Source: Bilabrum cf. latius
Taxonomy: Eukaryota
DNA: 64,000 nt
NCBI GenBank assembly: GCA_965178125.1
Contig: OZ237742.1
Coordinates: 248,001-312,000 of the forward strand
Direction: 5' to 3'
Shown here: positions 3 to 64,000 of the stretch, piece by piece
Position numbering within the stretch: position 1 is the first letter of the stretch
How the letters are laid out: every line of letters starts with the position of its first letter
Program-made: the position numbers and the translations under genes
The notes under the pieces: model-generated
The model's input: only the letters and a program-made list of their open reading frames with translations
The model's database searches: none
What the model was told of the DNA's origin: nothing

Positions 3-1667
3 CCGACAGCAGGAGGCGCACCAGGCCTGGATAATCAGCGTGGCACCATCGCCGGCTCGCAGGGCCCTCCCTGCCGAGTCGTGCTGGTGCATACCACTCG
101 CTCTTTGCTGGGCATCGCCAAGTCGATCGGCAAGTTCTCCGCTCCTGCGTGGTTTGGGGAGCCCCCGACACCTGACGAGTGGGCTCGTAGGCTCAGAGAG
201 CACAGGCAGAGCAAGCGAAAGGCACAGAAAGGAAAATCAAGGGAACAGGGGTCTGAAGTTGCGCGGCAATTCGGGCCAGGTGCAGAGTGCACCAGTGATG
301 AATCGGTAATCAGAGGCTTGGCCACGCAGTCCGTTGGCATCGGCGACTTTCTATTGTCGCTGGAGATGTGCCGGGCGAGCAGCTCCGTCCGGGTGCTAGC
401 CCGGAGGGGACCGAGACACGCCAAATGGGCGGCGCTCGGGCTGGCCGCGGCTTGCCTCGACCGCGAGTTGGGTGAGGTGCCGGGTCATGTACGCGAGGCA
501 GTCCACCAGTGGAGTGCCGCAGAATTCAGCCATGTTGAAGCCCTCGGAAGGTGGAAGCAGGGCAAAATTTTGGCTGCGAGTAGTAGGCTAGACGGGGCAG
601 GGGCAAAGCCACGGGCAGGGACAGCTGGGGGGACAGAGCAGGGCCAGGAGTCATCTGTCATGGGCAGGTCTGACGACGGCACAGTCTCGGTTGGTGGTCC
701 TGGCTGCATGCTGCGCGCTTGGATTGCGGTCAGCGAGTTCTGCGCTTTGGTAGGCGGTGGCGGCACTGTCGCAGACACTGGCTCAATGATCGAGCGGGTG
801 CGTCAAGAGGATGACGATGTTGGCTCAATCATGAGAGGTGTAGTGGAGTCGCGCGGTTTGACCAGTGGTGTTGCGAGCGCAAGTGACCGTCTGCAGGCCG
901 CCATGCCACTGATGGCTGCGATTGAGAGGGCGGTGTCTATGGTTACTGCACGGCTGCACGCCCTGATGCTCCAGCAGGAAGGCAGGCTGCTCGTCTATGC
1001 ACTGAGGCCGCCTTCGACTGGACCGCAGCACGCCCAGCCCCTGTCGCCATCACTGCTGCCGGTCTGCGAGCTGCTCGGAGGACATACCGGTGGCGGCCAG
1101 TTCCGCCTCGCGCCGATCAGGCCGATCAAGCCCTGGGAGGACACTGATAGCCCAAGCTCCAGCTCCAGCTCCAGCTCATCATCGTCTGCTGCGACCGGGG
1201 ACGGGGACATTTCTGATTCCGGATTGCTCACACCCGTGCTGCTTGAGGTCGACCACAGTACATTTGTGGCAGACCCTGCGCGGCTGTATGGGGTCGTGCG
1301 GCTCCTCTAGCAGCAATTGCAGCAGCAGCAGCAGCAGCAGCGCGGGGGTGTCCTATTGGGCTCGACCGTGCTGGACGCGCCTCTGCCCCCTCTCCCTCCC
1401 GAGGTGCGGCGGGCCTGCGAGGGCGTGCTGGCCTTCGGGAAAAGGCGCGGGATGACTAGGAGTCGGGCTGTCGGACCACTGTGCGATGCCGAGGGGTGTC
1501 ATCCCGCAGAGGGATCGGCTACTCGACCTCGACCTCGGTGCAGTCGTCCATCCCTGGTGTGGGCGGGCATCGTCTCTCGGCTGCCCGCCGTGATGGTGCT
1601 CGTGATGTGGGGCACCGTTTCTGGGTGCCATCATTGGAGCACTGGCAGGCAGGGTGGCGTCGGGTGA
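3..1667 (+). CDS. Hypothetical protein, 5'-partial, with a C-terminal hydrophobic (TM-like) segment; one in-frame TAG (1308)
   Basis: The frame is open from the window start. ORFs 81..1310 and 1317..1667 are in the same frame, joined by TAG at the head of a poly-Gln tract (CTC TAG CAG CAA TTG CAG CAG...). Ends TGA. Confidence 0.6.
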
Positions 1668-1844
1668 TGGCAGATCTCTCGGTGGCTGGTACGACCGCAT
1701 CATCGTCGTTGTGTTGCATTGCCACACACATGCATGTCGACCACCACGCACTCATCACAGCTTTTTGCGGAACCGCGCGGCGGCCCAGGATTCCGGAAGG
1801 ATCGGCCCGTCAGCTGGCCGTCACCTATCTATCAAGGAGCAAAC

Positions 1845-3100
1845 ATGGCTGCAAGTGGAGTTTCAGCTAAGGAGCTGTTCGAAACCGACCCTATTACACT
1901 CACGCGATGGCTACTTAGCGAGCAAGCTCGCCATAAGGGAGCTACGGGTGACTTCACACTCCTCATGCAGTCAATTCAGCTGGCAAGCAAGGTGAGACCA
2001 CAGCACATGTGTGGCGTCGCATTGCACCCGAATTAGCATACAGTATGGATCGTGTGCCTATAGTGGTGCGCTTGTGCGGGGGCGGCCGGATGGATGTGCC
2101 CCGCGTACAATCGAAGGTGCGACAACTCCCATCGACCAATCCTTCACCGTACGTGCCGCAGGTTGTCTCGACCGCAGTGCGCAAGGCAGGGATCGCTGGT
2201 TTGTTTGGCCTCGAGGGTGCCGTGAACGTTCAAGGAGAGGATCAGAAAAAGCTCGACATCATTGCGAACGAGAACTTCATCAACACGCTCAGATCGAGCA
2301 CGAAGGTGTGCCTCATGGTGTCAGAGGAGAACGACGATCCTGTTACTGTGGCCACGGACAAGTCTGGCAAGTACGTGTGCGTGTTCGACCCTCTGGACGG
2401 ATCGAGCAACATCGACTGCGGCGTGTCTGTCGGAAGCATCTTCGGCGTGTACGAGCGCAAGTCAGCGGTGGGGGAGTGCGCAACTGCGGCTGATGCCCTG
2501 CAGCCGGGCAGCGAGCTGCTCGCAGCTGGCTACACCATGTACGGTAGCTCCACGCAGCTCGTGCTGGCCATGAAGGGCGGCAAGGTCCAGATCTTCACGC
2601 TGGACCCGGCCATCGGCGAGTTCATCCACACGGGAACCGATGTTATGATCCCGGAGAAGCCCAAGCGCATCTACTCTGTCAACGAGGGCAATGAGTCGCT
2701 CTTCCCCGACGCGGTGCGCCGCTTCATCAGGCAGTGCAAGGCAGCGAGCCCCAAGCCCTACAGCCTCCGGTACGTGGGCAGCATGGTCTCGGACGTGCAC
2801 CGCACCCTCCTCTATGGAGGCATCTTCATGTACCCATCCACCAAGTCGGCGCCTGCGGGCAAGCTCAGGCTGCTGTACGAGTGCAACCCCATGTCGATGC
2901 TCATGGAGGCCGCGGGGGGGCGCGCCATCACGGCCCCCGGGCAGCGCATCCTCGACCTGGAGCCCGCCAAGATCCACGAGCGGGCGCCCATCTTCCTGGG
3001 CTGCAAGCGGGACGTGGACATCATCGAGGCGCTGTTGGCCGAGGACGAGGGCAAAGCAGGGGAGGGGGCGGGCGCTGCCACCGGCGGGGCTTCGTCGTGA
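1845..3100 (+). CDS. FBP: Fructose-1,6-bisphosphatase class I, cytosolic type; exons 1845-1991 and 2162-3100
   Basis: Motifs NVQGEDQKKLD, VSEE, FDPLDGSSNID, RYVGSMV, GKLRLLYE. GT..GCAG intron at 1992-2161. Ends TGA. Confidence 0.95.
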
Positions 3101-3512: not shown

Positions 3513-4514
3513 TCACATGGCCTTGACACCGAGGGCCACGCGGAATCCTTCAAACGCCATCATGGAGATGGTTGTGTGCGGGGCGATGCGCATCCAATTG
3601 GGGAAGAACCCCCTGTACAGGGCCATGGGCCCCTCCGCCCTGGTGATGCGCGCAGCTGCGTCCAGCAGGCCTCGGTACAGAGCGGGGGCCTCTTTCCCAG
3701 CTGCCTTGGCCTTGGCTACCTCAGCCTTCTAGTTCATGACACGGCTCTTAATAGTGTCCACAGGGGCGGTCACCACCGCCGTCACAAAGCCCGCGATGCC
3801 GCTAGCGGCGCAGTGGCACTGCCAGCCGTCCTGCATCCACCCGGCGTTGAGCAGGGCGTGCTTGGCGTGGTCGTACCCGGGCACCTAGCACGCCGTCAGC
3901 AATGCGGCCCGCTGCACGTTCGGTCCAACTCCCTGCCAAAGGGCAGATATGCCCCCTTCCTCCCTCACGATCCGCGAGGCGGTCGAAACGAAGCCGTCGT
4001 ACGACACCCCTCCTTGCGCCCGAATTTTTAGTAAATCGGTCGGGGTAGCGAGGGCGCTTCCAATGACCCCGCTCGCTGCACCAGCTGCTAGTTTGATATG
4101 CAATGGCGTGTGACGGCGATCCGTCTCGCCCAAGAGCCGCTTGAATGGCTCATACAGACCCAATCGGATTGAAGAGTCTGCAATTTTAGCAGATGGCAGG
4201 GTATGGTGGCAATGGGATCAATAGCACGATGGCTGATCAAACAGATCTTTCATTACGACAACATACTTACACGACATCTCCCTGGCCATGGCGGGGCCCA
4301 AGCCACTCCAGAGGCCCCGCACTCCTTCAGATTTTCCGATATGGACGAGGCCGGTCAACATGTTCGTATACGGTCGCTTGGCTGGGTCCAAGGCCCTATC
4401 AAGCTGCAACCTAACTTTAACTACATCAAGTGGATTGGTGCAGGATGCACCAATGGCGTTCGAAAGACCGGCTAAACCCAACCTTTCCCACAGCTAAAGC
4501 TCTCGCTGCGGCAT
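3513..4514 (-). CDS. Mitochondrial carrier (SLC25, UCP/dicarboxylate-like); intron 4178-4270; in-frame TAG at 4494, 3885, 3729
   Basis: Three carrier signatures: PLDVVKVRLQ, PTDLLKIRAQ, PVDTIKSRVMN*. Splicing gives REMSYSSIRLGLYEP. Ends TGA. Confidence 0.9.
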
Positions 4515-4737
4515 TATGATGAAGCAAGGCAAATACCTCCGACCGGGAGATACCAGGGACAGGCAGTTCGCTACCGAATTTCCCTTGCGAAACGCGCAAG
4601 GACTCGTATGCAGGCCTCTGGTTGTGTAGCATCCTATAGTCAGTCTGCGATCCCGGTTCGCTCGTCAGTCGCTCTCGGGTTGGCGTTGCCCGTGGCTCGA
4701 CCCGTCAGGAATCAGTGCACACATCCACACGCACCGA

Positions 4738-5916
4738 TCAAGTCCACGCCCACGGCCTCGTTGGGTCCTTTCGCCCAGCAGCGTGGTGCTGCAGCACTGC
4801 CAGCAGCTCCACCGCGGCCTCCTTGGGGCGGTACTCGTCGTCGAAGATGCACGGGTAGTTGTCCGACCCGAGATCCGTGTACCGGTCCGTGAACCCCCAC
4901 GTCACAAACGCGTTGCAACCCGGTCCCTTCCCGGGCTGGCTCGATTTCGCCGCAAGGCAGGCGCTCAGCATATCTCCGTACACCTTGGCCTGGGCCTCCC
5001 GGGCCTCCTTGCCGGCTGGCCCGGGGACGCACTCGGGGCACGAGAGGTCCATCTCCGTGATCTGGGTTGCCAGTCCGAGGTCTCGGATGGCGCGCATGTT
5101 GGCGAGCACTTGCTCCGGGGCGGGGAGCATCCCGAACTTGACGTGCATCTGCAGGCCTACCCCGTCGATGGGCACCCCCCTGGACAGCATGCCCTTGACG
5201 TAATCGAGCTACTTCTAGGCCTTGGTCGAGTTGAGCGCCTCCGCGTTGAAATCATTCACGAACAGTGCCAGCGAATCGGACTGTCTCGCGGCCGCTGCCG
5301 TCCGGAACGCAGTGTCCATGAAAGAAGGCAGCTTCGGGTACCACGTGCCGTTCTTCAGGTCTCCACCGTACGGAAAGCAGCCCCCAGGACCTCGCCCGCC
5401 ATCTTTCGTGCAAAACGGCTCATTGACGACGTCTGTGACGATGGGAAACGCCCCAGCACGGGCCACCATCTGCTCGACGTGGCTTCGAAGCAAGACATCG
5501 AGCACGGTGGCATTCTGCGGCCCGAGCCACTCTGGATTGTGCACACCCCAGCACAAATTGTGAAGCCGAAAACTTCCTCTCATGGCAGCGTTCACCCAGT
5601 GCTAGCTATCCAGACATTCCGTCACGTTCAGGGGTGCCGGAGGGGCCTGAGCCTGCGTGCTCTTCCACTTGCAACCGTTTCCCAGCGTTGTGATTGAGAA
5701 CTGCTGCTTCAGCAGATCTCCATATCCTGGATCGGAAGCATTGAATAAGTACTTGAAATTGTGGGATCCTCCGATCAACACACCAGCTCTCGCAGCCGCC
5801 GATCGCAGCGTCTCGTTTAGATCCACCCCGGACGCTGTGCTCAGCAACTCTGCACGGCTTGCACCAGCTGCCAAGAAATACAATGCAAAAAGTCTATGCA
5901 CCGAGTGGTTGGGCAT
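4738..5916 (-). CDS. Secreted GH10 glycoside hydrolase (endo-1,4-beta-xylanase-like); TAG at 5602, 5215, 5209
   Basis: Signal peptide-like N-terminus. Motifs HNLCW, DVVNEP (acid/base), NDFN, PIDGVGLQMH, QITEMD (nucleophile), TWGFTD. Three same-frame ORFs joined by TAG. Ends TGA. Confidence 0.9.
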
Positions 5917-6094: not shown

Positions 6095-8518
6095 ATGCGG
6101 GCAGTTGCTGCTGTGCTAGCGTGTGCGTCGGTAACATCTCAGATTGCCTGGGGGATCAGTCCTCAAAAGATCTTGCAGGGAATGTCGTTGGAAGACAAGA
6201 TCGGGCAGATGACGCAACTCGACATATCATACTTCAAGAGCTCGCAGCCTCTCTCGAAGGACAGCCCGCTGGGGCTGGACGCCAAGAAACTCGAGGACAC
6301 GTTCAATTAGTATCGGATAGGGTCCGTCATCAACACCCTGTACACTGGCGTCGATTTGTGCTCTAACGAGTTGGGCAACGCCACGAACGGGTGGACTGTG
6401 GAGCAGTGGCGCGCCATCGTTTCGCAAGTCCAGGCGGCGTCTAAGAAGTCGCAGAGTGGGACGTTTGTCCCCGTCCTCTACGGGCTGGACAGTGTCCACG
6501 GGGCTAACTACGTGCCGGGGAGTGCCATCTTCCCTCACAACACCGGGGTGGCGGCAACGTTTAACACCTAGTGCGCCGCTGCCGCTGGGCGCCGCGCCGC
6601 GGAAGACACGCGAGCCGCGGGCATCCCGTGGATGTTCAGCCCAGTCCTCGGCGTGGGCATCGACCCTCTCTGGAGCAGGCTGTACGAGACCTTCGGGGAG
6701 GACCCCCTGGTGGCCGCCTCGATGGGCGGGGCCTTTGTAGCGAGCGCGCAGCTCGGGGGCGTCAACGCCAGCGACTCGGTGGCCGCCACTGCCAAGCACC
6801 TGATGGGGTACAGCGCCCCCCGGTCGGGCAAGGACCGCACGGACGCGTGGATCCCGGAGCCCTACCTGCGGCAGTACTTTGTTCCCTCCTTCCAGGCCGC
6901 GTTCAACGCAGGCGCGCAGACGATCATGTGCAACTCGGGCTCCATCAACGGCATGCCCGTGCACGCCTCAAGGCCGATCCTCACGGAACTGGTCAGGAAG
7001 CAGATGGGCTTCGGGGACGGGCTGGCGGTCACGGACTGGCAGGACATCGAGAAGCTGCACTTTTACCACCACCTGGCCGCCACCAACGCTGAGGCGGTGC
7101 AGCTGGCCCTGGACGCGGGCATCGACATGTCCATGGTCCCGCTGGACCTGTCCTTCTTCACCACGCTGAGGGACCTGGTGCACAACGGGACCGTCCCCGA
7201 GTCGAGGCTGGACACGAGCGTGCTGCGCATCTTGCAGGCCAAGGCAGACATGGGCCTCTTTGAGAACCCAGTGGCGGCCCCTGCGGCACGGGACCACGTG
7301 CCCGGGAGCCCACAGGCCGAGTTCGAGGCGCTAGAGACGGCCCGCCAGAGCCTCACGCTCATCAAGAACGACCCCATCCCGGGGAACAGCTCCGGGCATG
7401 GGACGGTCCACGGGGCTGGCGATGAGGACGAGGCAGCCCTCGCGCAGCAGCCCGCTGCCCTCCCGCTCGATTGGCTGCCGGCGGGCGGCAAGGTGCTCGT
7501 GACGGGCCCAGCCGCAGCCTCGAGATCGGTCATGTGCGGCGGGTGGACGTTCCACTGGCTGGGCGCCTGTTCCAGCGACGTGGAGTTCAACGGGCGGGGG
7601 CACCTCGTGCACGAGGCGCTGCAGAGCTAGCTGCCGCACGCCGATGTCAGCTTCGTGCAGGGCGCGGGGTTCGACAAGCCCCTCAAGGGCGGGCTGGAGC
7701 AGGCCGCCGCGGCTGCCAAGGACAGTGACGTGGTCGTACTAGTGGTGGGCGAGCCGCCCGAGAGCGAGTCCGAAGGTGACGCAAACACCCTGCTGCTGTC
7801 CTAGCCTCAGATGGAGCTGTACGACGCCGTGGCTGCGGCCGGCAAGCCCATCGTCGTGGTGCTCCTCGAGCCGAGGCCCAGGGTGCTGGGCCGCGTGGCT
7901 GACGGAGCCTCTGCCATCCTCATGGCGTACCTGCCCTGTTACCACGGCGGGCAGGCCATCGCGGAGGCAATGGCTGGCGTGTTCTCGCCCTCTGGCCGGC
8001 TGCCGATCGAGTATCCCGCGACCACGGGCGACCTGGATGTGTACTACCGCAAGCCCACGTCGGACTACTCGTAGGGCACCTCGCAGCCCACGCACAGCCC
8101 GCTCGCTGGCTTCGGCCACGGGCTGACCTACGGCAACATCACGGTGGACTCACTCTCCCTGAGCTCTGCCGAGGTGGCGCCCACTGGTGTGGTGGACCTG
8201 TCTGTGCAGCTCACCAACAGGGGTGCCAGGGCGGCCAACTACACGATCCTAGTCTTCGGGACGCAGCTGTACCGATCACGGATCACGCCCGAGGTGGAAA
8301 TGCTGCGCAAGTTCCAGCAGACGGGCGAGATCAAGCCCGGCAAGTCGTTCGTGGCGCACGTCCAGGTCGAGGCCCAGTCCTTCGCCTACTGGGATTTCAA
8401 CGCGACCATGCGGGTGGACGCGGGCGAGATGGTCCTTCGCGTGGAAGACAAGGCCATCAGCATGCACATTACCGAGGGGGCCGTCGTCAAGCAGGGCACT
8501 CCCATCGGCATGGGCTGA
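6095..8518 (+). CDS. Secreted GH3 beta-glucosidase/xylosidase (~807 aa); TAG at 6308, 6569, 7628, 7802, 8072
   Basis: Signal peptide. Motifs MSLEDKIGQMTQ, YGLDSVHG, WSRLYETFGEDP, AKH, VTDWQDI, AGIDMSM, PSGRLP, FGHGLTY, and an FN3-like C-terminus. Ends TGA. Confidence 0.93.
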
Positions 8519-8763: not shown

Positions 8764-11700
8764 TCACCTGCGCCCGCGTCCCCTGCCCCGTCCCCGACCC
8801 CGCTTGCCCCCGCCACGTCCCGGTGGTGCGCCCGATCCCGCCCCCCGAGCCTCCAGCATCGCCGTGGCCTCCTCGGCCTCCTGCATCCCTGCCTGCGACT
8901 CCAGCACCCGCACCGCAAGCTGGATCCTCGCCCGCAGTCGCTGCCGCATGGCCTCGGCCTCGGCGCTGCTGCCCGGGTGCATGACGTCCACGAACTTTCC
9001 GAACTTGCCTTGCAGGAACAGGATCAGCCCGTCCCTTGTTGACCCACGGTCCGCCCCGCTGCCAATCCTCTTCCACAGTGCCTTCTGCTCCGCCTCTGGG
9101 GTGTCCTCCAAGATGGTGCCGATGCACGTGCGTAGGAACAGGAGCGTGGTCTTTGTGGGCCGCAAGAAGTTGAACACCTTGAGGAAGGACAGGCCCAGCA
9201 CGAACCGCTGCACCAGGGCGGCGCTGAGCCGAGCCAGGTTGTAGATGCGCCTGGGCGGGGCCTCCCCGAACAGCTTGAACTGGTCCCACAGCGACAGCTA
9301 GAACGTGAAACGGAAGGATTGGTTGTCCTCGCAGAGCCTGGCTCCCACGGCCGCGTAGTAAGGATTGTACTGCTTCTCCTGCCCGCAGCAATCCAGCAGA
9401 ACTCGCACCACCTCCCGCTCCTGGGCCCCTCGCAGACCCAGGCTCCCCACCCTCTCGATTGCGTCCTGCACGCCCTGGCTGCCCATGACAGCCACGAAAA
9501 TCCTCCTTCTCAGGTCCGTGTTCATCCTCATCCTAGACGCTGCCTCCAGCAGAGCGGCATCCCCACCGGACCGACTCGATGCATCGGCAGCGGCCAGCGT
9601 GCTGCCCAGCTTGCTGCCGCTTGGCTTGTCGCTGCCGGGCCGACTCGATGCGGCCTCGCCTGCCGGCCGCTTTGCGTCCTGCTGGCCGTCAATGCCCGGC
9701 CGTCCCGCCCACGACGCGCCCGTAATCCACCATCTCCCACGCGACCGGATGTGCACGATATCCTCCCAGCGGATCCGGATCTGGCGGTCACCGACGCTGC
9801 CGTCGTCCGCCTGCGTACTTCGCCTGAGCTTGAAGATCCACTTGCGCAGCCTCGATCCCCTCTCCTCCGAGTCTGCCTGGTCTTGCTTCTGCTTGGCGCG
9901 ACGGAGCCCCCCCAGCAGCTCCAGCACCACCTGCACCCTGGCTCGCTCCCCACCCGAGGCGCGAGCAGCAGCACTTGCACCCGCGGCCTTGCCCTTGCCG
10001 ACCACGTAACCAAGTTCGGTGGCCCTTCGCTTCACCAGCTGCAGCAATTTTCGGACGCCCTCGTTATCGTCGGATCTCAGCTGAGAGCCCACCAGTTTGA
10101 GCAGCAGCAGCACTATCCTCACGTCTGCACCCCGGAGCCGGCACGCCAGCAGCCGCAGCACGTCCACGACAAACGCGGCCTGCACCATGCCCATCAGGAA
10201 CATGTATCCCAGCAGCATGGACAGGTTCTGCTGCTCGTTTGTAGTGAGGCCATCGCTGCCGTCCTCATCGTCGTCACTTCCTTCTTCTTCCTGGCTGGCA
10301 CCGCGTCCTCTGGCAGCCTTGCTAGCAGCCTCGCCGGCACCATCGCTCGCGAAACCAGACGCCGCCTGAGCCTCTGCCTCCTCCTCCGTGTCTGGCAGGT
10401 CCAGTGCCCGCCTCAGCTTTACAACCACCGCCTCCAGGAGCGCAGACCCGGCCCCCGCGCCAGCGTACACGTGCTGCGTGGCAAGCACCGCGGCATACAC
10501 GACGATGAGCTGCTCCCCGACCTTGGTGCCTGCACACAGCTGCTCGGTGACGCAGGCAGCCGTAGCGGTAGTCACCTCAGCGCTGGCATAGGGCCCCCTC
10601 AGCCCGTGCAGCTCCTTGGAAATCGGGTCCACGTTGGTCTCTGCAAGCCGGTTGATCAGTCCTTTGATTCGGCGCTTCATGGTGGCCATGCGAGCGTCGT
10701 CCTCGCTGCTCCGCGGGAGTCCACTCGAGGCAGGAGAAGATCTAGCGGCAGCTGATCCAGAGGTACTGGAAGCTGCAGCAGCTGCTGCCGCCGCTCTTCG
10801 GAGGTGTGGAGGCACGTACGCCCCAGGCGTCTAGCGAGGCGCAGCGCCTGGCTGCTCCGAACCTGCAGCCTGTCCACGGCTGGTGCCGGAATCTTCCTCG
10901 CTGTCGCTATCAGTGTCCCCGCTCGCCCCTCCGCCATACATGGCAGCTGCCATTGCGCGGCGCCGGGCAGCTGCCTTGCGGAACCTGTTCGCCTCGTCAT
11001 CATCATCGTCCTGGTCCTCGTCGTCATCACCATCGTCATCACCACTGCCGCTGCCACTGCCTGAAGAGGCGTCCGAGTCTGACCCCGCCTTTGCTCTCGC
11101 TCTATCCCCCACTGAGGTGCCTGTCTACTTCTCCCGCGCGCGGATCAGAGCCGCCAGCTTCGACCGGCTACCTTGCTGCCCGGCTGTCCCCTCCTCTTCC
11201 TCCCCCTCCCCCTCCTCCTCAACTTCCTCCTAGTCACTGCTCGAGTCTGATGAGTCACCGGTGCTGCTACTTGAGCTTGGATCTGAGCTCGAGTCGGATT
11301 CCCCTGCGCTTTCACTCCCACTGTCGCTGTCACTGTCACTCCCACTATCGCTGCTGTCGCTGTCGCTGTCGCTGCCGCTGTCCGTATCGCTATCGCTGTC
11401 GTTCCTCCGAGACGCGGACTTGCCCTCCTCCTCTCGGAGATGGCCAGACCCAATCCGATCCAGGTCCATCATGAGGTCCGCCAGCCCGGCCCCGTAGCCG
11501 TCCTTGCGCAGCTCCAGCTCCATCTGCTTCCATGCCTTGGTTCTCTTGCGCTTCGGGCCGGCTGCAGCGTCGCCGTCGGCCTCCTCGGGCGCTTCATCAA
11601 ACTCTCTAGCGGCTTCTTTGGTCTTGTTCCCCGAAACTCCAAGCAGTTTCTCCAGGCGCTCAATCTCAGCGTCCTCGGGGTCGCTGTCGTCTCCCTCTAG

Positions 11701-12099
11701 GAATGCAGCTCGATCATTTTGCGATGCGGCGCTGAAGCTGCTGGAACCGATTAGGTTCTGCTTTTTAAGAGACTTGTAAAAATCTGCATTCTTGCCCGAA
11801 GACAAGATGCTCTTCTTTGGCTTGCGTTGCTGCGCAAATCGAACTCGAGGCTGCTCCTGTGCTCTTTGGACCTGGGGCTGCGCATCCCGACTTTCGCGCG
11901 CCGTGCGGCGCTTTTTGGATGGTTGCTATCGTGGAATCGGTGCTCTCTTCTGCTTTTTGGCTTTCCGCTGCTGCTTGCGTAGTTCTCGCCTGCTCAACTT
12001 GCTGTTCCCAGCTGCCGAAGACATGCCTGGATGCATGGCACCCCAGTCGTCCCCATCCGCACCGCTCGCCTCAAGTTCTGCCCTAGATCTTTTAGGCAT
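8764..12099 (-). CDS. NOM1: Nucleolar MIF4G/MA3 domain protein NOM1/Sgd1 (~1,111 aa); TAG at 11926, 11230, 11125, 10831, 9298
   Basis: Motifs EIERLEKLLG, YVPPHLR, IKGLINRL, GRWWITGASW, RMNTDLRRRIFVAVM, CCGQEKQYNPYY, FTF*LSLWD. All segments share one frame. Ends TGA. Confidence 0.9.
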
Positions 12100-12221: not shown

Positions 12222-14960
12222 TCAGGAAGCACCGTGCACTGCCAGCGGGCTGCTATTCCTGAAATCCTTCTGGTCGTTACGCCTACCTCGTTCCCCGGAG
12301 AATTGCCGCCTCGTCTCCCCTGCTTGCTCGCGAGGCTGGTGGTCCCCTGGCCCCGATGCAACCAGCGCAGGTCTGGACCGGAAGTAGGGCGAGGCCCCCG
12401 GAAGGGGGGTGGAGGGAGACGACGCGGACTCATGGTCCCACCCTGCATCCACCCCAGCCGCCTCTCCCGGCCCCTGCCCGCCACTGACCGTACCCGCAGG
12501 CACAGCCCGAGCCACGGCCAGCCGTCCATCCCCCTCCCCCTCCCCCTCCACCTCCCCGTCGCTCCAAGTGATTTTCCTCTCGTCCGAACCAGACCACTCG
12601 GTCGAAGGCAGATCGCCATGCGCAAACGCACCTCCAGCAGCAGACGAAGAGCCGGGGCTCCCTTCTCCTCCACGCACGCCGCCGGCAGCTCCGGCCGCTC
12701 CGGAGGCAAATGCAAGCCCTTTTCCATCACCGCGGGGAGACTTGCCCCTGCCTATACTAGCACTGTCTTGCAGCGCCGGTCTGGGCTCCCTCAGCCCTAT
12801 GGACTCCAGGCACATGTCGAAGATGGCCTGGACCGCGATCCTGGCCTCGGGCACGAAATCGAAGTTGATGAACCCGTGGGGCAGGTTCCGGTACACGCTC
12901 AGAGTCACCGGCTTGCCCAGTCGCCGGAGTCTTGTCGAGAAGTCGATGGCGTCGTCAAGAAGCGGATCCAGCCCGCCCACCACGATGTGGGTAGAGGGCA
13001 GACCCACCAGCAGTCGGTCGGGTGCCAGGCCTGGGTTCACCAGAGGCAGGTCGCAGTGCTTGCCGATGTACTCCTCGGGAACGTACGAGGCAGCTAGCTC
13101 CTTGAGCAGCCGGATGGGCACCAGCGGGTCGTTGATGTGCAGCGCGCGGCTGGGGGATGGGGTGTCGTTCAGGTTGAGAGCCGGGTACACGGGGACGAGC
13201 GCCTCTGGGCCCCGCACCCGCTCCTTGACGCATCGCAGCGCAAGGGCGACAGCCAGGTTCCCCCCCGCGCTCTCCCCGATCACCACCATGCGCCTGCTCC
13301 ACGACCTCAGCTGCCTGTAGACCCTCGCGATCTCGTCCAGCGCCACGGGGAACCTGACCTCTGGCGACAGGCTGTAGTGCACGTACACGATGGTCAGCCT
13401 GGGCTCCTGCTTGGCCCACTGCGCCAGCATGCCAGCGTCGAGCCCGAACGAGGTGCCCACGAAGCCACCCCCGTGAATGTACAGCATCACAGAGTCCAGT
13501 GGCGGGCTGGAGCCCGGCCCACTGCTAGCCTCCTGCGGTGCAGACGACGCCGCAGCACCCGCCGCACGGGGCTCCCGACTGCCGATGGAAGATGACGATG
13601 ACGACGACAAGGAGTCCCCGGACCCGGACCCGGCCCCCATGGCACCAGGGAAAGCCCCCGAGCCCTACGACTTGCCCGCAGCCGCGCCAGCGGTAGCAGC
13701 AGCCAGCAAAGACCCGACGCTGCTGCTCGCCCCCATGCGAACTGTCTCCGGCCCAGACCTGTCGAACACGTAGTCGGGCACCACCCGGTCCGCAAACGCG
13801 TGGCACTGCACGCCCCTCACCTCCACCGCGCGGTTGGTCGCCAGGGCAGGAGACCGCAGCCAGCTCAGCTGCCTGGCCGCTGGCGAGTTCAGCTGCATCC
13901 AGACGGACTTGACGAACTCGATGTCGATCTGCTCGTGCATGACATGCTGCGCGTGCTCGGCAGCTTGCCCGGGAAACAAGAGGTAGTATCCCGCCGCGGC
14001 CACCGTGGCGGGCCACCTGAGCCAGGCCCTCCCCCTCTTGAGCTGGTCCCAGCCCACCTTCATGGATGCGTAGCTGAGGTCCAGACCCACCTTGAGAGCG
14101 CCTAGGTGGGCCGTCTTGAAGCTCCAGATGGCGGCGTCCCGCGGCAGGGACGCTTCCTCCAGGAGCTTGCGGGCGGGCACCGCGCTGGCCGTCTCTTGCT
14201 CAGTGGCATCCAGGTCTGCGATGAGAACCGCGTAGGAAGACTGCCTGGCGACGTTGGTCTTTTTGAATACGTGCCGCGTGACCAGCCATATCCTAAGCAG
14301 GATCAGGAGGATGCGGTGCAGTCGCTTGAGCCGAGCAATCAGGTGGTGGCGGCGCATGAACAACCGGTACACGAGAATGCCTGCCACCACCACCACCCCC
14401 GTCTAGCTGAGCGCGTGCAGCCTGCCCCTCCTCCGCTTGGCTGCCAGCCACAGGCGCAGTGCGAGGGCAAGCACCACCACGCCGCCCACCGGCCACAGCG
14501 TGCGGATGAACCGCCTCCAGGACGAATCCTTCTCGATCGCCTGCAGGGTCTCATCAGTGGTCTTGAGCACGTAAGAGAAGTGATACAGGAGCGACGTCAA
14601 GCCGCCCGGGGGCATTCGCTGAAGCGCGATGTGAGCAGGAATACGACGAATCCGGTCCATCGCGTACTCGAGCGAAGCCGTGCGGTCAAGGGGCTGCAGC
14701 TTGGCTTCTTCCAGGATACTGTCGACATGGGCATAGAATACCTGGTCAAGCGCGGAGAGAGAGAGCGTGATATCTCTTAGCTGCTCCTTGAGGTCCGGAT
14801 CAGCCGCCACCGCCGGCTGCTTGAATAGCCGTTGCACGTTCTGAACCACTGTGAGAGCCTAACTGGCCGCCGCAAACAAATGCCTGAAGGCCTGAAACGA
14901 GTCGGACTCCTTCTAGTCATGCTGGGACCGGTCCCTCGGACCTTGCTGCACCAGCGACAT
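12222..14960 (-). CDS. Hormone-sensitive-lipase-family alpha/beta hydrolase with an N-terminal membrane-anchored extension (~912 aa); 4 in-frame TAG
   Basis: Motifs HGGGF, YSLSPE, GESAGG, DPLLDD, HGF. Upstream same-frame ORFs with hydrophobic helices are joined by TAG. Ends TGA. Confidence 0.85.
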
Positions 14961-22487: not shown

Positions 22488-22695
22488 CCAATATGTCACA
22501 GCATCATGAATATGCAGCAAGCAAATACAGTTACGGCGTCTCAAAAGAGACCACCGCTCTTGAATTCTGCGTCCTAATTAACGATACGTCCTTTAGGTAG
22601 GGCACATGCCAGAAATACGCGTGTGCTCTGCCTTGGTCTCCGGCACTCGTCACCGCAGGGGGAAATCAACCGCCGCAAACGACGCAATACATTTA

Positions 22696-25395: not shown

Positions 25396-25448
<53 letters not shown>

Positions 25449-44317: not shown

Positions 44318-44537
44318 ATTTGAAGGGTGATAATTGCTATCGTTCACTATAAAGCATGCAGCACAGGCAAAAATGATGTCATGAGAAAGAGAACAAATGA
44401 AATCCGAACAGCCAGCGAGGATGGTGGAGCAAGATCCTGGAGCAAGATGCCACATCATGTGAACCGACCTAACCACGAAAGTGCGTGGTAAGTACTGCAC
44501 AATCAACAGGCTTGCCTACTTAGCGACATGGCTCTTG

Positions 44538-50500: not shown

Positions 50501-53500
50501 TCGTCACCTCCACTGAGAGGCCTCGCCCAGCACCACGCGGAGTGCGGCACTGGATCGACCCCGGGGACAGGTACGTGACCTGAACGCAGGGCACACCCCC
50601 GATCGTGACCGACTGAATGTCTGCATCGCTTTCGCCGAACTCGCTGCCCTCGATGACGAGCTCCTCCGAGCCGAGCTGCGAGAAGACCGACGTCGGGGTT
50701 GCCGCCAGCAGCCGCACGCTGCGAACCTGGGGTCGCTGATACACTCGAACGATACCTCTTCCAACGAAATTCTGCTGCTCCGTCGACGTCTGCACCATGA
50801 TTTCGTCCGACGTGTCGAATGCGGCGGGGTCAACGCCAACACAGCTCAGTTGCTAAGCTCCAGTCTAGGATGCTTGCATAGGAAGCACTTGAGAACAGGC
50901 AGCGCCGCTGATCCAGATGCTCGGCACTCCGTCCGCAGCTACACCAGACCACAGATTGTCCCCTTCGACCACAAACGATGTCGTATTCACAAAGCCAACT
51001 GGTGCGAGCAACGAGTGGCCTGGTGTCAACCGGGAGACACTCGGTGAGTTGTAGCTGAACAGCATAGCGGGAGGTGATCTCATCCCCACGCTGTTGGTGA
51101 TCACGACAGCAATGCTCGTCCCTATCCCAGCCGGTGCAGTGCACTCCAGATCGAGCGATCCAATCACTGTGACTGCGGTGCATGCTCGCCCTCCTATTCT
51201 CACTGCTGGTGTCTGGGGCGTGCCGAGATCCTCCCCACTGAGGCGCCCAAACCCCCCGCCCGAGATTCGGAGCACCGTGTCTCCAGCTACCTAGCCCAGC
51301 GATGGCCTCACTGCAGACACGAACGGTGCGTCTAAGCTGCTGAAGACGCTAAAGCTGGTGCCGATCTGCCCACCGATCGTCACCTGCACTCTCGGAGTTG
51401 CATAGGAGTCCTGCAGCACAACGTGGCACAGCACAGCTGACTCATTCAGCACCCATACACCGCCCGTACACATCTATCCTCCTATGTCAACTGCAGGTGT
51501 GTATGATTCGGATTCACTGTACACGAGCAGCCTGGAAAGGTCCTTCAGAACCCGGTGTACCTGCATGGTGCCAGCGTCGAACCAGAGCGACCATGGATCC
51601 AGTGTGGCGCACTGTTCTGGGACAAGCCACTCTTGCACCGCCGCTGTCATGATTGTGGAGCGATAAGTGGCATTTTGCAGGTGCAGACAAAGACTGTCCA
51701 GCATTGCACGGCGCTCAGTGCCGCGGAGACTCCTCAGCGACACGGGCGACGATCGACCGACCCGTGTGGCCGCGAGGTTGCTGCCCATTATGACGAAATC
51801 TTGCGAGACCGGTCCCTCTAGGGCTCGATCGGGAATCACGCTTGCAACCTGAGGCGCCCGATACGAAAACAAAGCCCCGTTGCTAGTGCGGTACCCCGCC
51901 GAGGACAGGACAACGACCTCGTGATTGGTCCCGGTCCCAGGCGGGTGAGTGCACAGTAGCAAGGTATCCGAGACGTAGTAGTGCTGCAGACACACCTGAC
52001 CGCCAATTAGCACCTCTGCTACATCTCCCTGGTCCTCACCAAAATTCTAACCGAGCACCGTGACGTTGATCCCGCCACTTGTGGCAGCCACGGCAGGCAC
52101 GACCGCGGCCACACTTGGAACGCCGACAGCCCTGAAAACCTCCTCCGTTCGCACAGAAGCTGCCTGGTCCTCCAGCTGCACCACGACAAGGCTACTCCTC
52201 CAGATGGAAGCATCCATCAGAGGGCACATAACGGCAGTATCGTTGAGCACAACGATCGACCGGCACTCTCTTCCACCGACTACAACACTGCTAGGGCTGA
52301 TGCCTGCAGCAACTGCGGCCAAATTATTTCCGAGAATCGTCACGTTGTAAACGGCATCAGGACCAGTCAAGACATACCTTGGCATGACAGTTATTATCAC
52401 AGGAGCGGCATACCCAGCCAACCGAACCCCCCCACTGGCAGCCACGTCGGTAGACGAAACCAACGAGACGTCAACCTGGGAGCCAGCTCCTGCAGGTGCA
52501 ACACACTGTACCGAAGTCGTGCTGATCACCTGTACACTGGTGCACGGCCGCCCACCAATCTCCACGCGAGCAACGGTACCCTTGTTGATGCCCAGGTTGG
52601 TGCCGCTGATCAGGACAGAGACACCCCCGGACGATGGAAACGTCGCGGGGCTCACGGCCGCAATGCTAGGCAGCCCTAGCACTTGCAGACTCTGAACGTC
52701 TCGAGTAACCTAGCCTCCAACGGAGAGAACAATTGCATTGGTCCCAAACTCGCGCACACCACTCACAGTCCAGTTCTGACACTCGATGTGGGAGCTGTTC
52801 ACGACGAGAGGGTCGCAAGGGATGCCGGCGATCGACACGGTTGGCAGACCGCTAGCCAACGCCAGACTACCCAAGTCTGTGCCAAACACGGAAAATGACT
52901 GCCGTTGTTCACCAACAATGACAAAGGCTGGCTTTATTGCCGTGATCTGTGGCGGGTCGTACGCGAAGAACGACGAACCCCCCGCTCGCAGCTTGTTTGT
53001 GAGCTGAACCAGAAGTACTGCTGGATTGCCCACACCGGGAGGCACTGTGCAGGTCATTTCGGTGCGCAGGCCGTTGAACTGGACGGACAAGCAGTCTCTC
53101 CCATTCACTGTTAGGAATTCGAGGGTGGTCGCATCGAGTGCAAGGTTCTGTCCCGTGATCACGATGTCGTAGCCCCCATCCACTCCACCAGATGACGGGG
53201 ACACCGAGTCGACGATAGGCGCGCCCGCAAAGACGAAAACGGATGCGGTTGCCGTTTGCCCACCGACTGTGATCGATGCTGTCGACTCCTCAAACAAATT
53301 CTGGCTCACGTTGAGGCATCGGACGGCGCTCGAGTTGATGAGCTCAATGCTGCCGCATGGCGACCCTCCCACCCGGCCTGCCGAGGGACCCACACCAAGC
53401 CGGATGGAGCCTAAATTGTCTCCAATCATCGTAAAGTTCTGAAACGACAGGGCTTTCTCGCTCTCTGGCGGATCCACGAGCCGCAGGGACGGCTGCCTGA

Positions 53501-56500
53501 AGCTGTAGGCCCGTGGGAGAGTGGCCGTGCCGGCAGGCGTGGTAACCGCGACATCCAGCTAGGCACCGACCCCGCCCACTAAAGTGCACGTGATCTCCTG
53601 GTTGTTGTCGAACAGGCTTGCCTGGGTCTCCATCTAGACGTCAAAGCACGTGAAGCTTCCACCCACGACCACGCTCTGCACATCGCTCGCAACGCTCCCC
53701 AGGTTCCTACCGCTGAGCACAAGAGTCTGATTCGCATCCGTGGGGGCCTGCTGCCCGCTGGTTATCTCGGCACTCGGGGCCTTGTATACCACCACGCCTT
53801 CAGTTAGCGTGCTGCGCTGGCCGCCGTACTCGATGTAGACCGCGCTGCCTTGGCTGACGAGCAGGGCGGCTCCCGCCACCACGCACTGAATCGAGGTGAT
53901 CAGTCCATCGCTGTCGACCGCATCCTGTTGCTAGCCCAAGCATGCAGCTCCTGCTATGCGAATCGTCGCGCTGGAGGCATCCCCGTTGAGTGCAAGGCGG
54001 CTGCCGCTGAGCGTGAACGTCGTGTTCTACCCCGAGACCGCGAACACGCCAGACGGTGAAATGCTCTGAAGGGTAGGTGACTGGAAGCTCACCTAGAAGC
54101 TCGTCTGTGAGCTTGATTGCCCGTCCACCGTAGCTTGCACTGTGAAGGGGCCTCCGATGAGCTTCGGGGTGGTGCAACGCAGCTAAGAAGCTGAATCTCG
54201 TAAGGTCTGTGCGCATGGAATCGACCCTATGCGAACCTAAGCATTGCTGGCGGCTTGGGTCCCGTCCGAAGTGTGGGAGGTAGATGTGCCAAACCCACTT
54301 CCAGAGATCACAACAGACTGCTAGCCGGCCGCATCCAGCGTGAACGAAGACTCGCCGCCGAGCCGCACAGCAGTGATGGCCGGCGGCAAGAACCCGACCA
54401 TGCAGTAACCCACGCGGTCATGTTCAACATCCCACGAAGCAGACAGCGCCCGGGGCTTGCCAGTGCCCGAAGGTATCACCACGCGGAAGGTCTGCAGCGT
54501 TGCTGAGCTGTACGTCGAGAACTGGTCAGCGGACATGCCTTCCTTGATGCCATGGTCGACGGCAGGCTACCCACCGACCCCCGTCGAGGTCCTCGAGTTG
54601 AGCGCTGTCACGACGACGGAACGCTGTTGCGCACCGTCCAGCAGCAGAGCGCCGTTGCTGAAGTCTGTCTCGTTTGCTCCGCACTCCACCGAAGCCGTTC
54701 CGAGCGACATCCGCAAGAGCTTGACTTGAGAATAATTCGCTGCGGCAGAGGACCCCCGTGAGAACCCAGACTAGTACAAATCAACCCAGTCCGAGTCGGT
54801 TAGCACATCATCGAGGCGCGCCTTGGCAGCATGCGAGATGTCGCTCAGAGCTGAGCGATAATCGGGAGACCGCACCACTGGCTGCATTGCGCCGGCATTA
54901 CCGTCAATGTCGTACCGCAAGTTGATGTTGACAATGGTCCCGACGCCCGAAGGCACCTCGGCCGAGACCTCCCAGTCGGAGTGCACCTGCACGCTGGCCA
55001 TCTCCAGGCTGCTCAACTCGCTTGCAGAAGATTGCATCCGCACGCTCGCAAACAGTCGCATGCGAGCTTTGCCGCTGCCCGCGATACGATGTGCTGCAGA
55101 GACCGCTCTGGTCCCGGTGGGACGCACCCACACGTGGGAGCCGAAGTTGACACCAATGACGCGGATACGCTGCTTTCTGTACAAGTCATAGTACTGGATT
55201 TCCTCTTGATTCTCGGTCGGGGATCGACTCACGGCATACGCGATGGGGGATGCGAAATTGAACGTCGGCAAAGTTCCTGTCGCCGGGCGGTCGGCTGCAA
55301 ACAACTGCACGACTTTGCTGCTGCCCACGTCGCTGCTCGGCACGCAGTCGGCCATGGTGGAATTGATGACGCTCACCGAGCGGCAGGCCTGCCCGTCTAC
55401 GGTGACTCGAACCTGTTCGTTGCCTGCGGTGCCAAAGTTTTCGCCCTTGATGCGGATCTTCCACCTCGTGTTCGGCGCGGTGGTATTCACCCAGCGCATG
55501 TGCTGCGGCGGCAGCAGCATGCCGCTGACGGAAGGCAACTCCGTGCTCACTGCGCCAACAAGAGTCTCGCGATGCGTGCTGTTGGACCCGTACTTGAACT
55601 GCACAACCGCATTCATACTGTCCCCGTGGGTCGCTGGCATGACCGCCCGAACTCTGAACTGCTGACAGCTATGCGAAGGGCCCTGCAGAGCTGCGACGTT
55701 CACGCTCGACGCCTCCTCACCCCCAATCCACAGCTTCACGGCGCTGCGAATGTCTGCACGCGCAACCAGGCCAGTGGGCACGGTGACCCTGAACTCGATG
55801 CCTTGCCCCCCTGCCGGATCGTAGCAGCAGCCGGTCGTCAGGTTGAGTCCAGCGGGGGGGCTGGTCGGGTGCCCCGCCCCCGCCTGCAGCTCGATTCGAG
55901 ACCGGTCGCACCTGAACATGGGTGACACCTCAGGCAGGTCATAGTAGAGCGAGTTGGGCACTTCACTCGGGCTATTAATCATGTTGATCTTGCTCGACTC
56001 CATCAGCTGGAACCCATCCTTGATCACCTCCACGATCCCGTCCTGGTACCCGCACTCCGACGCCGGGCAGTCGCAGTGGCTAGGCCCCGTCTCGCCCTGA
56101 ATCGAGGCGCTTGGGCACTTGTGCGCGCCGCTGGACACGCTGAGGCTCGCCGGTGAGTACTTGAGTGTGACTCTGTCCCCCGCGCCGTAGGTCCCCCTGC
56201 CGAAGAACCGGATCCTGCCACCTCCCCCAAGGGCGTCTTCCCCCTTGGCCCCCGGCCATACATCAGGGGGCTCTGCGCGGCTATACCCGCCGCGGGCCGT
56301 GATTTGAGTCTCCTTCGATAGCACGATCGACTCGGTCCCGTACACGGTCAGGTAGACAGTGCCCCCCGACCCCCCCCCGGGAATACCAGGGCCGTACGCA
56401 TCAGCTCCATCAGCGGCGATCACCACGCGGCCAAGGTGGATGCTGCCATGCCTGCTCTGGAAACTGAGCAGCCCGCCAGAGGCTCCGCCGTGTGAAGGTC

Positions 56501-57317
56501 TGCAGAAATCCTCGTCGTCGTAGCCCTTCAGCTCCAGGCTCTGACCGTCCTCAGACACGACCCGGTCGGTGGCGAGACCTCCGCCGCCACCGCCGCCTCC
56601 AGCGAACACAGTCTGCCCCGCCGCGGACAGCACTGCCACTTGGTTGCTGTTGGCTAGGCGGGATCTGCCCCCTCGTCCTCCGTGTGAACCTCCTGCTGCC
56701 CCAGGTACTTCTTGCAGCGCAGAAGCGGGTGGTGAAATGGAACCGTGATTTGTGACGAACGCCCCATTGCTCACCCTAGAATGGCCTCGTGTACCAACAG
56801 GCCTTTGGACCTCTGCCGCATGCTGTATAGTTGAAAATGAAGCGTATCCAGCGGACAAGCCGCCGGCATACCCACCCAAGTAGTTGAGGTGGGAGGTGGT
56901 GTAGGTCCTACCATCACAAGCAAGCGCTTTTGACCGCGCGTTGGCCCCAAACTACCGTGCTTGCACCGTAATATTCTGCATTGGACTAGTGAGGTTCCAT
57001 ACACCACCATCAATGATGATGTCGTAAGACGTGTAGAACCGGAGAGCTCGCCGTCCTGAGAGCTGAATCTTGGTCCCGTAGGCCAATATGATATGGTTGA
57101 ACGAAAAGTCAGCGGATGTAAGCCCGCCGCCGATAGCTCCGATGCTCCCGCCTTTACAAGTTCCGCCACTGCATATGGTGACGGCGTCCGTGTCGATGCT
57201 CAACGTCTCTGTCCCTGCGCAGCACACGAGGTCCTGTCGTCCGAGCTGAAAGCATGCCAGACACAGGGCTGTCAGGTAGCACAGAAGCCACGTCAGGCTT
57301 TGAACAAGATTAATCAT
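44538..57317 (-). CDS. Giant (~4,259 aa) cell-surface protein: signal peptide, Gly-rich region, many IPT/TIG repeats, FN3, Cys-rich modules, multi-pass TM domain; about 28 in-frame TAG
   Basis: Sixteen standard-code ORFs lie in one frame. Each gap was translated by hand and contains only TAG. Repeated P.I..V.P / I.G.NFG / V.IGG..C / C..P.G.G pattern. C-terminal FLYAGFR...YWE.V...RK...PY....N.LE. Ends TGA. Confidence 0.88.
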
Positions 57318-62355: not shown

Positions 62356-62518
62356 TTATAATAGGCGCAGGTGTGCCTGTATCCCTGCATCCTGGACATC
62401 GAGTGGTGGGTGGGCCGGGGTAGCGTGTGCTGCTGTGTGATGCACCGGTCACAACCAACCCGCTTGTGGTCAGTCCATTATTTAGTCGCAACAACATTCA
62501 TACAACACAACCATGGAA

Positions 62519-64000
62519 TCAATCAGTTAATAGGCACGTGCATGCCCAGACAACATCAGCGGCCTTTGTCCTCATTCCACGCATCTCAGTGGAGAGAACA
62601 GCAACTGCTTTCACCCATGCGTCCGCACCTCGGACGTGGGCACCCTGCGCCGGGGACAGCTTGGGATGGCTGCGAGCCGACGCGAGGAATTCCCTCCAGC
62701 GGTCCAGATCACTTGCACTCACGTCCAACCGCAATGGATCCTCACCCTGCTCCTCGTCTGCTCGTCTCTGGCACACGACTGCCTCGGGCTCGGGCTCGGC
62801 ACCAAGCAGGTTCATCTCGCGCTCACTTGTGAGGTCGCTTGCCTGCTACCCGCCTGCACCGACCAACGCGCCAAGTATGCTACCTCGGGGAGCATGCACA
62901 GCCCCAGCGCTCCCCGACGCATCCGCTCGTGCACCCCCCGCGGCACCCGCCAGGTCCTTCACCTCCACGTAGCTCCCCGTCGATTGGGTGTGTGCCCCGT
63001 GGCACGCCATGGGGCCCAGCAGCACCCTCAGCAGCACGTCCAGCAGGTTGGCCCGCTCCACAACCGTCACCACGTCGCGAGGGGAGCATGTTGCGCTTTC
63101 TGCACCGTCGCTCGCATGGCTCACGGAGCAGTCGGGCCAGGCTTCGGGCTGGTGCGGGAGCCAAGGTACCGCTCGGCCGATGCAGTCTCGTGGGGTGGCG
63201 CAGGAGAGGGGCAAGGAGCAGTCGCTGCTCGTGGGCTGCAACCCGTCCATATCCGACAGGAACACGCGCAAGCCGTCCTAACGACGGCCATCTCCCGTTG
63301 ACCCAGGCATGACCTGCCACTGGCTGGGCTTCCAGTCACAGATCCACCGACCCATCCCCCTGGCCTCGAGGACCGACTCCACCAGGGATGCCGCGATCTG
63401 TGTCCTCTTACTTGCCTCCTGGGCGATCAGCGCGAACGCTTGCCATTGCACCGACGAGTCGCTCGCGATGCTAGCAGGCCCCCGCTCCGGCAGTACAGAG
63501 GCACGCCGTATGGCTTGCGCCAGCCTGCCCTCGGACCGGACCAGCCACTCGTCCAGGGGAACCGCCCCAGCTGGCAAGTGCCTCACACCCAAGCTGCATG
63601 CTGACCCCTCCAGGCCGGGAGGACTCGCGGCGTAGCCAAGCAGGATGGGGCTGAGCCCCGCCCGCACCCTCCTCACGTCCCTCAGCACGTGGTTCTCCGC
63701 GTCAAGGTCGCACCTGTGCTCGTCCGACCACAGCTCGTATCGGAACATCTCTTGACACCAGCGTTGCGACAGGGCCCCGGGATTTTGCCCCGCCCTCGCG
63801 TCCCATGGGGGTGCTTCGGCGCACGGGAGATCCCGAGGAACAACTGTGCCGCCCTACTCGTTCCCTTGCGGGCCACTCGCATGGCGCTATCCTGTGGTCA
63901 GGAACGGCTTGCCGGAGCGATCGATCGCAAGCAGCTGCCGGTGGGCGACTCTGCCCTCGCCCATGCTAAGGGTTAAGCGGTCCCCATCAAAGCCAGCGTA
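62519..64000 (-). CDS. 5'-partial protein with a divergent kinase-like domain (DIPK/PKDCC-like); 4 in-frame TAG
   Basis: The frame is open from 64000 with only TAG interruptions. SPILLGY, ICDWKPSQW and FLSDMD resemble catalytic-loop and DFG equivalents. Ends TGA. Confidence 0.5.

Follow-up and report, generated by a model that had tools for sequence, protein, structure and literature searches.

UAG most likely read as glutamine, UGA as stop and UAA kept out of coding frames in a GC-rich eukaryotic chromosome segment

The stretch of DNA considered here, hereafter the window, comprises 64,000 nucleotides of contig OZ237742.1 (positions 248,001 to 312,000 of the forward strand; GenBank assembly GCA_965178125.1, Bilabrum cf. 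latius). It possesses a guanine plus cytosine (GC) content of 62% and carries tightly packed eukaryotic genes on both strands, most of which are crossed by in-frame TAG triplets. Taken together, the results indicate that UAG is very probably a sense codon in the nuclear code of the organism, its most likely meaning being glutamine, with UGA being a working stop codon and UAA not being used as sense. An initial annotation of the window had already proposed TAG to be a sense codon with glutamine as its most likely meaning, and this proposal is supported by domains located downstream of the TAG codons, by independent contigs, by residue tests in alignment columns and by the exchange of TAG and CAG between the organism and a close relative.

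Seventeen gene models were built, 16 of which have Pfam or homologue support, the 17th being a long membrane-protein open reading frame (ORF) without a family match. In sum 15,263 codons were covered, and 84 in-frame TAG were found in 12 of the 17 models next to not a single TAA or internal TGA, whereby all 17 models terminate with TGA. Approximately 26 additional TAG locate to seven long ORFs without family support, and the earlier estimate of 90-100 TAG in about 18 genes on both strands was thus roughly right, as was the statement that these genes are free of frameshifts and of in-frame TGA or TAA. When in-frame and off-frame triplets were compared over 15 coding sequences, TAG amounted to 5.4 versus 7.0 per 1000 codons, TGA to 0 versus 16.2 and TAA to 0 versus 2.4. 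With TAG taken as sense, the longest ORFs of the window extend over 4273, 2063 and 1123 residues, as compared to 726 residues with the standard set of stop codons; taking TGA as sense yielded at most 905 residues, though the TGA triplet is the commoner one (1570 versus 893 TAG), and taking TAA as sense did not change the longest ORFs at all. The housekeeping genes that had been named as affected were confirmed to be so, namely those of a NOM1-like protein, the ERG8-type phosphomevalonate kinase, a Sen1-like helicase (AAA_11 and AAA_12), a protein of the dynein regulatory complex DRC1/2 family (NYD-SP28) and an SLC25 carrier. For each of the 11 family-supported genes that bear TAG, domains or homology extend past the last one. 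Examples are the glycoside hydrolase family 3 (GH3) protein, whose Fn3-like domain follows the last TAG (Pfam), the Sen1-like superfamily-1 helicase (22606..28773, plus strand, 2056 codons, 12 in-frame TAG; Pfam PF13086, PF13087), whose last TAG resides between AAA_11 and AAA_12, with the latter being recognized behind the TAG at codon 1709 (Pfam), and a giant protein with 24 IPT/TIG repeats (44538..57317, minus strand, 4260 codons; Pfam PF01833, 326.4 bits), which holds 28 in-frame TAG but neither TAA nor TGA and whose TRP-like region is located after the TAG at codon 3902.

The identity of the residue encoded by TAG was approached by three tests. For the first one, the GH3 protein (beta-glucosidase-like; 6095..8518, plus strand, ending in TGA; Pfam PF00933, PF01915, PF14310), which has five in-frame TAG at 6308, 6569, 7628, 7802 and 8072 and for which 6311 homologues were found, was aligned with 120 homologues, and ERG8 (31440..33486, minus strand, seven in-frame TAG, 1973 homologues) was aligned with 150, whereby each TAG of the query was kept as X. 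The TAG at ERG8 ORF residue 60 falls into a column that holds glutamine in 143 of the 150 homologues and glutamate in one. Summed over the eight GH3 and ERG8 TAG sites with enough occupancy, the column log-odds were 8.53 for Q, 3.29 for E, -0.73 for S and -3.82 for K, and neither Leu, Trp nor Tyr was among the eight best residues. Calibration with random eight-site sets recovered the true residue in at least 94% of the samples for 37 of 41 codons; for GCA, GCT, GAT and GAA recovery was lower (55-87%). For the second test, which is Codetta-like and uses curated models, Pfam domain scores were compared with TAG translated as Q, K, E, S or L. Over seven families (PF00933, PF01915, PF02847, PF02636, PF14772, PF00153 and PF00331) the scores summed to 789.7 bits for Q, 781.1 for K, 775.6 for S and 762.0 for L, while the sum for E, partly carried over from whole-ORF runs, was about 780.1; glutamine hence exceeds lysine by 8.6 and glutamate by about 9.6 bits. 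The largest single effect came from the NDUFAF7/MidA-like Methyltransf_28 protein (16425..18677, minus strand, four in-frame TAG; Pfam PF02636), with 71.0 bits for Q, 66.7 for K, 66.3 for E, 66.0 for S and 65.9 for L, and the MA3 domain of the NOM1-like protein (PF02847) behaved alike (Q 53.7, K 52.0, S 51.5, L 49.9 bits). The third test considered 15 TAG sites in the TIG repeats of the giant protein, using its 24 own repeats and 216 from other proteins. The expectation that TAG columns would be enriched for one amino acid was hence borne out by the column log-odds and the Pfam sums, in both of which Q scored best, the TIG-repeat test being weak. Searching solved structures gave no match for ERG8 and none for the Methyltransf_28 protein. 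On the strength of these alignment-based scores, glutamine is the best-supported and most likely meaning of TAG.

Independent information comes from a close relative of the organism, which is about 7% diverged, shares 87-95% protein identity and is represented by the public sequencing runs X11 and X12 as well as by the fragments P0001, P0121, P0123, P0125, P0129 and P0272. From approximately 1540 nucleotide differences, 40 were listed, of which 34 locate to GH3 positions 7403-8456. These 34 are distributed over third, first and second codon positions as 26, 7 and 1 (binomial p = 3e-7), and this third-position bias implies that the GH3 frame is under purifying selection through and past three TAG codons. 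At 7628 and 8072 the relative carries a T>C change, which converts TAG into CAG. Fragments of the relative span seven TAG sites, where its residue is Q in three cases, two of them being the T>C sites, K in two, and E and G in one each, while other fragments end right before a TAG of the window (at residues 1962 and 2451 of the TIG protein and at residue 367 of ERG8) and one ends at TIG residue 1732, where the window has CAG. Fragments ending at TAG sites, together with the exchange of TAG and CAG, suggest that the relative shares the code, and from these sequence comparisons it seems to use the same one.

Next to this, contigs from four other public runs (X5, X6, X11 and X12) were compared with positions 5936-25935 of the window. 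The sequence of the window recurs in X5 and X6, with 0 differences and 0 gaps in the listed pieces, and the exactly matching pieces cover 17 (X5) and 11 (X6) in-frame TAG, at none of which a joint or a base change was seen. The X5 pieces are gene-sized, as exemplified by the piece 6049-8628, which spans the GH3 coding sequence without a difference, and the lipase-like gene described below is likewise matched with 0 differences by an X5 contig (12565-15092) and an X6 contig (12565-15107); the depths of the X5 pieces vary by gene from 16.6 to 85.7, a figure not usable as a measure. RNA origin was judged by splice joints. In the WD40 gene (18762-20374, plus strand, TAG-free; Pfam) two spliceosomal GT..AG introns are documented by contig joints, at 18875-18965 (91 nucleotides) and at 19132-19229 (98 nucleotides), as each of the runs X5, X6 and X12 has one contig that connects 18874 with 18966 and 19131 with 19230, while an X11 contig retains both introns; from this it follows that the three joined contigs derive from spliced RNA. 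These joints are the only direct transcript evidence within 5936-25935, and the unspliced contigs may derive from RNA as well. The retention of TAG in mRNA, which had been named as a check, is thus supported by exact contigs over 17 and 11 TAG, with some contigs being spliced. A further X5 contig (15207-18309) bridges two convergent genes, a membrane-protein ORF on the plus strand ending at 16343 and the Methyltransf_28 gene on the minus strand ending at 16425, which may reflect overlapping 3' ends or a contig derived from DNA.

Several observations weigh against reading TAG as glutamine in a UAG-only code. Most TAG sites reside in variable columns, and much of the glutamine signal comes from just two sites, residue 60 of ERG8 and one site in Methyltransf_28. 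NYD-SP28 mildly favours other residues, scoring K at 61.7, S at 61.6 and E at 61.1 over Q at 61.0 bits. Opposite two TAG sites of the SLC25 carrier, UCP1 and UCP2, whose structures are solved, have E and S, and at the second of these sites Q is present, among the solved carriers compared, in the ADP/ATP carrier only. The TIG-repeat test was near flat (Q 1.37, S 1.18, T 0.80), and its control recovered Q for CAG in just 51% of the samples. In the relative, four of the seven TAG sites have a non-glutamine residue as compared to four of 57 CAG sites (Fisher p = 0.003; fragments P0001, P0123, P0129 and P0272; GH3, TIG and ERG8), and this faster replacement could result from unconstrained positions or from a decoding that is not purely glutamine but mixed. 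Finally, none of the 17 gene models ends in TAA, UAA as a stop being an assumption, and the run table labels X5 as 'RNA? (probably DNA)' and X6 as 'RNA?'.

Parts of this list would fit the idea that TAG is sense for glutamate or lysine, or is read ambiguously as Gln, Lys or Glu by near-cognate tRNAs: lysine at two and glutamate at one of the seven sites in the relative, the slight preference of NYD-SP28 and the glutamate at one SLC25 site in both UCP1 and UCP2. A meaning of glutamate for UAG is moreover known from some ciliates, as described in PMC11687900. Against this idea stand the ERG8 column with its 143 glutamines and single glutamate, the summed log-odds and Pfam scores, both of which place E and K below Q, and the two TAG sites that a T>C change turns into CAG in the relative, and we consider it very unlikely.

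Glutamine as the meaning of UAG raises the point whether UAA shares it, as in the codes of the ciliate, Hexamita and Amoeboaphelidium type, with TAA missing here through GC bias. Such a code would be in line with PMC5304391, according to which UAA and UAG are as a rule reassigned jointly, and with the lack of any family-supported gene with a TAA terminator, given that 17 of 17 end in TGA. The GC bias can however be accounted for, as the ratio of NAA to NAG codons is 0.23-0.25 for Gln, Glu and Lys (CAA, GAA and AAA versus their G-ending partners), so that about 20 in-frame TAA would be expected if TAA were synonymous with TAG, whereas none was observed (Poisson p = 1e-9). Those in-frame TAA that do occur in true gene frames were always found upstream of the start codon or within an intron. 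From the deficit of TAA it follows that the code is UAG-only and that TAA is not sense; an extension of the glutamine meaning to UAA is even less probable than a different residue for UAG. Judged from these codon counts, UAA is not reassigned and UAG alone is recoded to glutamine, while UGA is the working stop codon. The single long ORF ending in TAA (37181-38251, minus strand) is without family support and locates to a tandem duplication.

A context-dependent code of the Condylostoma or Blastocrithidia type, in which TAG would be sense within genes and stop at their ends, was weighed as well. Codes of this kind exist, as PMC4967479 documents, and given how the ORFs were delimited, a TAG stop with an in-frame TGA behind it would have gone unseen. 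But homology or domains continue past the last TAG in each of the 11 family-supported TAG-bearing genes, the GH3 contig extends 110 nucleotides beyond the TGA, and in none of the 17 genes of the window is TAG needed as a terminator, which renders this explanation scarcely credible. That the TAG codons are not translated at all, being assembly errors, RNA-edited sites, micro-introns or marks of pseudogenes, is favoured by nothing beyond the general expectation that a gene with in-frame stops is broken and is already contradicted by the exact contigs of two runs without joints at 17 and 11 TAG, by the substitution bias that persists past TAG codons, by a relative in which TAG at these sites is either shared or exchanged, and by 15,263 codons devoid of frameshifts, TGA and TAA.

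For the decoding of UAG as glutamine, a tRNA-Gln with the anticodon CUA would be the likely reader, as this anticodon would pair with UAG and not with UAA and would be a single mutation away from the CUG of ordinary tRNA-Gln, and it would be complemented by a release factor eRF1 lacking efficient UAG recognition. The same mechanism, tRNA-Gln(CUA) and a weakened eRF1, was proposed for Iotanema spirale in PMC5304391, where it is also explained that no anticodon other than CUA reads UAG and leaves UAA unread and that eRF1 must lose its affinity for UAG. Within the 64-kb window ARAGORN identified no tRNA gene, Rfam identified no RNA family at gathering score, and an eRF1 gene is absent. Since one gene of 4260 codons contains 28 TAG, UAG decoding must be efficient. 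TAG makes up about 12% of the glutamine-type codons. Five short and conserved genes, namely those of fructose-1,6-bisphosphatase (FBPase), the WD40 protein, DJ-1, ADP-ribosylglycohydrolase and the MYST histone acetyltransferase, are free of it, with 0 TAG among 47 glutamine-type codons where about seven would be expected (p = 0.0013), which suggests that TAG is avoided in some genes. TAG would then be a rare and mildly disfavoured codon, gained and lost mostly at tolerant sites, and its low share, its absence from the five conserved genes and its turnover being faster than that of CAG fit such a role.

Among the known variant codes, that of the fornicate Iotanema spirale is similar in that UAG alone is reassigned, likewise to glutamine, and UAA is not sense; according to PMC5304391, nuclear UAG means Gln there, whereas UAA and UGA are stops. 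Iotanema is however an anaerobic metamonad with mostly UAA stops (PMC5304391), whereas the window has 62% GC, TGA stops in 17 of 17 models and genes for an SLC25 carrier and an NDUFAF7-like complex I assembly factor, which would point to ordinary mitochondria. Reassignment of UAG only, to Gln, is described for the ciliates Protocruzia tuzeti and two phyllopharyngean lineages in PMC11687900. Their codes share with that of the window the codon, its meaning and the exclusion of UAA from coding frames, but the window is a 64-kb piece of a 62% GC chromosome with about 20 genes on both strands and GT..AG introns of 88-98 nucleotides. Ciliate macronuclear genomes are typically AT-rich. The reading of both UAA and UAG as glutamine (NCBI table 6) is found in many ciliates, ulvophyte green algae, Hexamita, Streblomastix and Amoeboaphelidium protococcarum, as described in PMC11687900 and PMC6299283; the window resembles these codes by a stop codon that is given to glutamine, in its case presumably through a tRNA-Gln variant, but in them TAA is sense too, while the window has none where about 20 would be expected. 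Amoeboaphelidium was considered as a candidate source and ruled out, as its genomes have 40% GC (PMC10608142) versus the 62% of the window and TAA is reported to mean Gln there (PMC6299283); annotated NCBI proteins of Amoeboaphelidium were not among the close matches of the window proteins. Other nuclear changes restricted to UAG are those of the rhizarian exLh (Leu) and of Scotinosphaera (Ser), as described in PMC5304391 and PMC11687900. These likewise uncouple UAG from UAA but differ in the residue, Leu being 27.7 and Ser 14.1 Pfam bits below Gln and Ser also 9.3 log-odds units below. Outside of nuclear genomes, genetic code 15 with TAG read as Gln occurs in crAss-like and other gut phages (PMC9523058), from which the window differs by its eukaryotic genes and its spliceosomal introns confirmed by spliced contigs. 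By these sequence-level comparisons the window appears to fit none of the carriers checked, whereby ulvophytes and Scotinosphaera were compared without GC content or gene structure.

The remaining gene models of the window comprise, from its beginning, FBPase (2045..3100, plus strand; Pfam) and the SLC25 mitochondrial carrier (3513..4664, minus strand, three in-frame TAG), in which Pfam Mito_carr was recognized on both exon ORFs. A GT..AG intron of 94 nucleotides is predicted here at about 4178-4271, after approximately 80 codons, and would hold the one in-frame TGA of this frame; the exon borders used in the gene model are an estimate. They are followed by a glycoside hydrolase of family 10 (GH10; 4738..5916, minus strand, three in-frame TAG, ending in TGA; Pfam PF00331, 164.6-165.9 bits), a divergent neighbour of the GH3 gene with the two start codons being 178 bp apart. 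Both N-termini have hydrophobic stretches that, by eye and without a predictor, resemble signal peptides, and GH10 and GH3 may represent a co-regulated pair of secreted glycosidases. The NOM1/Sgd1-like gene (MIF4G and MA3; 8764..12099, minus strand; Pfam) has five in-frame TAG, one of which lies within MA3, and the adjacent hormone-sensitive-lipase-like alpha/beta hydrolase (12222..14960, minus strand) has four, all of them upstream of its catalytic domain (Pfam PF07859 at ORF residues 523-729). In the Methyltransf_16-like gene (20502..22487, minus strand; Pfam PF10294) the four TAG occupy ORF codons 50, 492, 506 and 520. A threefold tandem repeat of 14 residues is located at 21018-21104 (minus strand) of this gene, with one TAG per unit at the equal place, implying that TAG was copied together with the repeat. 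Downstream of the helicase gene the DRC1/2-family protein (29543..31336, plus strand, three in-frame TAG; Pfam PF14772) is encoded, and for the ERG8 gene next to it a first exon of only 8 nucleotides (ATG and five bases) is predicted, followed by an 88-nucleotide GT..AG intron at about 33391-33478. Introns are accordingly few and short, two being confirmed (91 and 98 nucleotides) and two predicted from sequence (94 and 88 nucleotides), all GT..AG. DJ-1 (33635-34234, plus strand; Pfam) precedes a tandem duplication at 36284-40200 with a unit of about 2.16 kb and copies that are 93-95% alike, whose ORFs belong to no Pfam family and contain 12 in-frame TAG. The long membrane-protein ORF (42188..44566, minus strand, six in-frame TAG) has no Pfam family either. 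The giant TIG protein has its closest named relative in a Pelomyxa 'zymogen granule membrane glycoprotein' (23% identity), and its own C-terminal multi-pass region weakly resembles the TRP channel family (18.9 bits, under the cut-off). ADP-ribosylglycohydrolase (57543-59225, minus strand; Pfam) and the MYST histone acetyltransferase (60970-62355, plus strand; Pfam) complete the set.

With respect to the affiliation of the organism, the nearest named homologues of the window proteins share 41-61% identity and are spread across groups. They include the stramenopiles Tribonema, Phaeothamnion, Platysulcus, Ochromonadaceae and Epipyxis, and outside of these Amoebozoa (dictyostelids and Phalansterium), Colponema vietnamica, Roombia, Cyanophora and animals. 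Atlas placed the MYST protein with Oomycota and gave nothing useful for FBPase. Genes for mitochondrial functions and for cilia are among those of the window.

The nuclear code in which UAG, and only UAG, is given to glutamine is real here, and a separate recoding event, as suggested by the initial annotation, is plausible on these comparisons. No GC-rich non-ciliate eukaryote with UAG read as Gln was found reported in the full-text literature, subscription journals and supplements being outside of that scope. More specifically, we tentatively propose, at slightly less than an even chance, that the code represents an independent and so far unreported origin of a UAG-only glutamine code in a GC-rich, intron-poor, mitochondriate and flagellated eukaryote which is neither ciliate, fornicate nor aphelid, that the code is common to at least two lineages, which differ from each other by about 7%, and that the organism may, given the number of runs, be culturable. 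The still disfavoured status of TAG, which is absent from the five conserved genes and is replaced more quickly than CAG, would mean that the clade shows a rather early phase of stop-codon capture. The producers of the reads, which come from several studies, may already be aware of the code.

Changes of the nuclear code are rare, and those which split UAG from UAA are rarer still: only a handful are described in the available portions of PMC5304391 and PMC11687900, namely Iotanema, Protocruzia, some phyllopharyngean ciliates, exLh and Scotinosphaera. A practical consequence is that gene calling with the standard code fragments the genes of this organism, and database proteins of both the organism and its relative are indeed stored as fragments that are cut at TAG; whoever annotates genomes or analyses proteomes of the clade hence has to choose the correct translation table. 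An additional lineage whose chromosome is normal and gene-dense, and for which several studies supply DNA and RNA data, would be a good study system for the questions opened by this code, namely how eRF1 loses UAG yet keeps UGA, where tRNA-Gln(CUA) originates from and at which rate a freed codon spreads through the genes.

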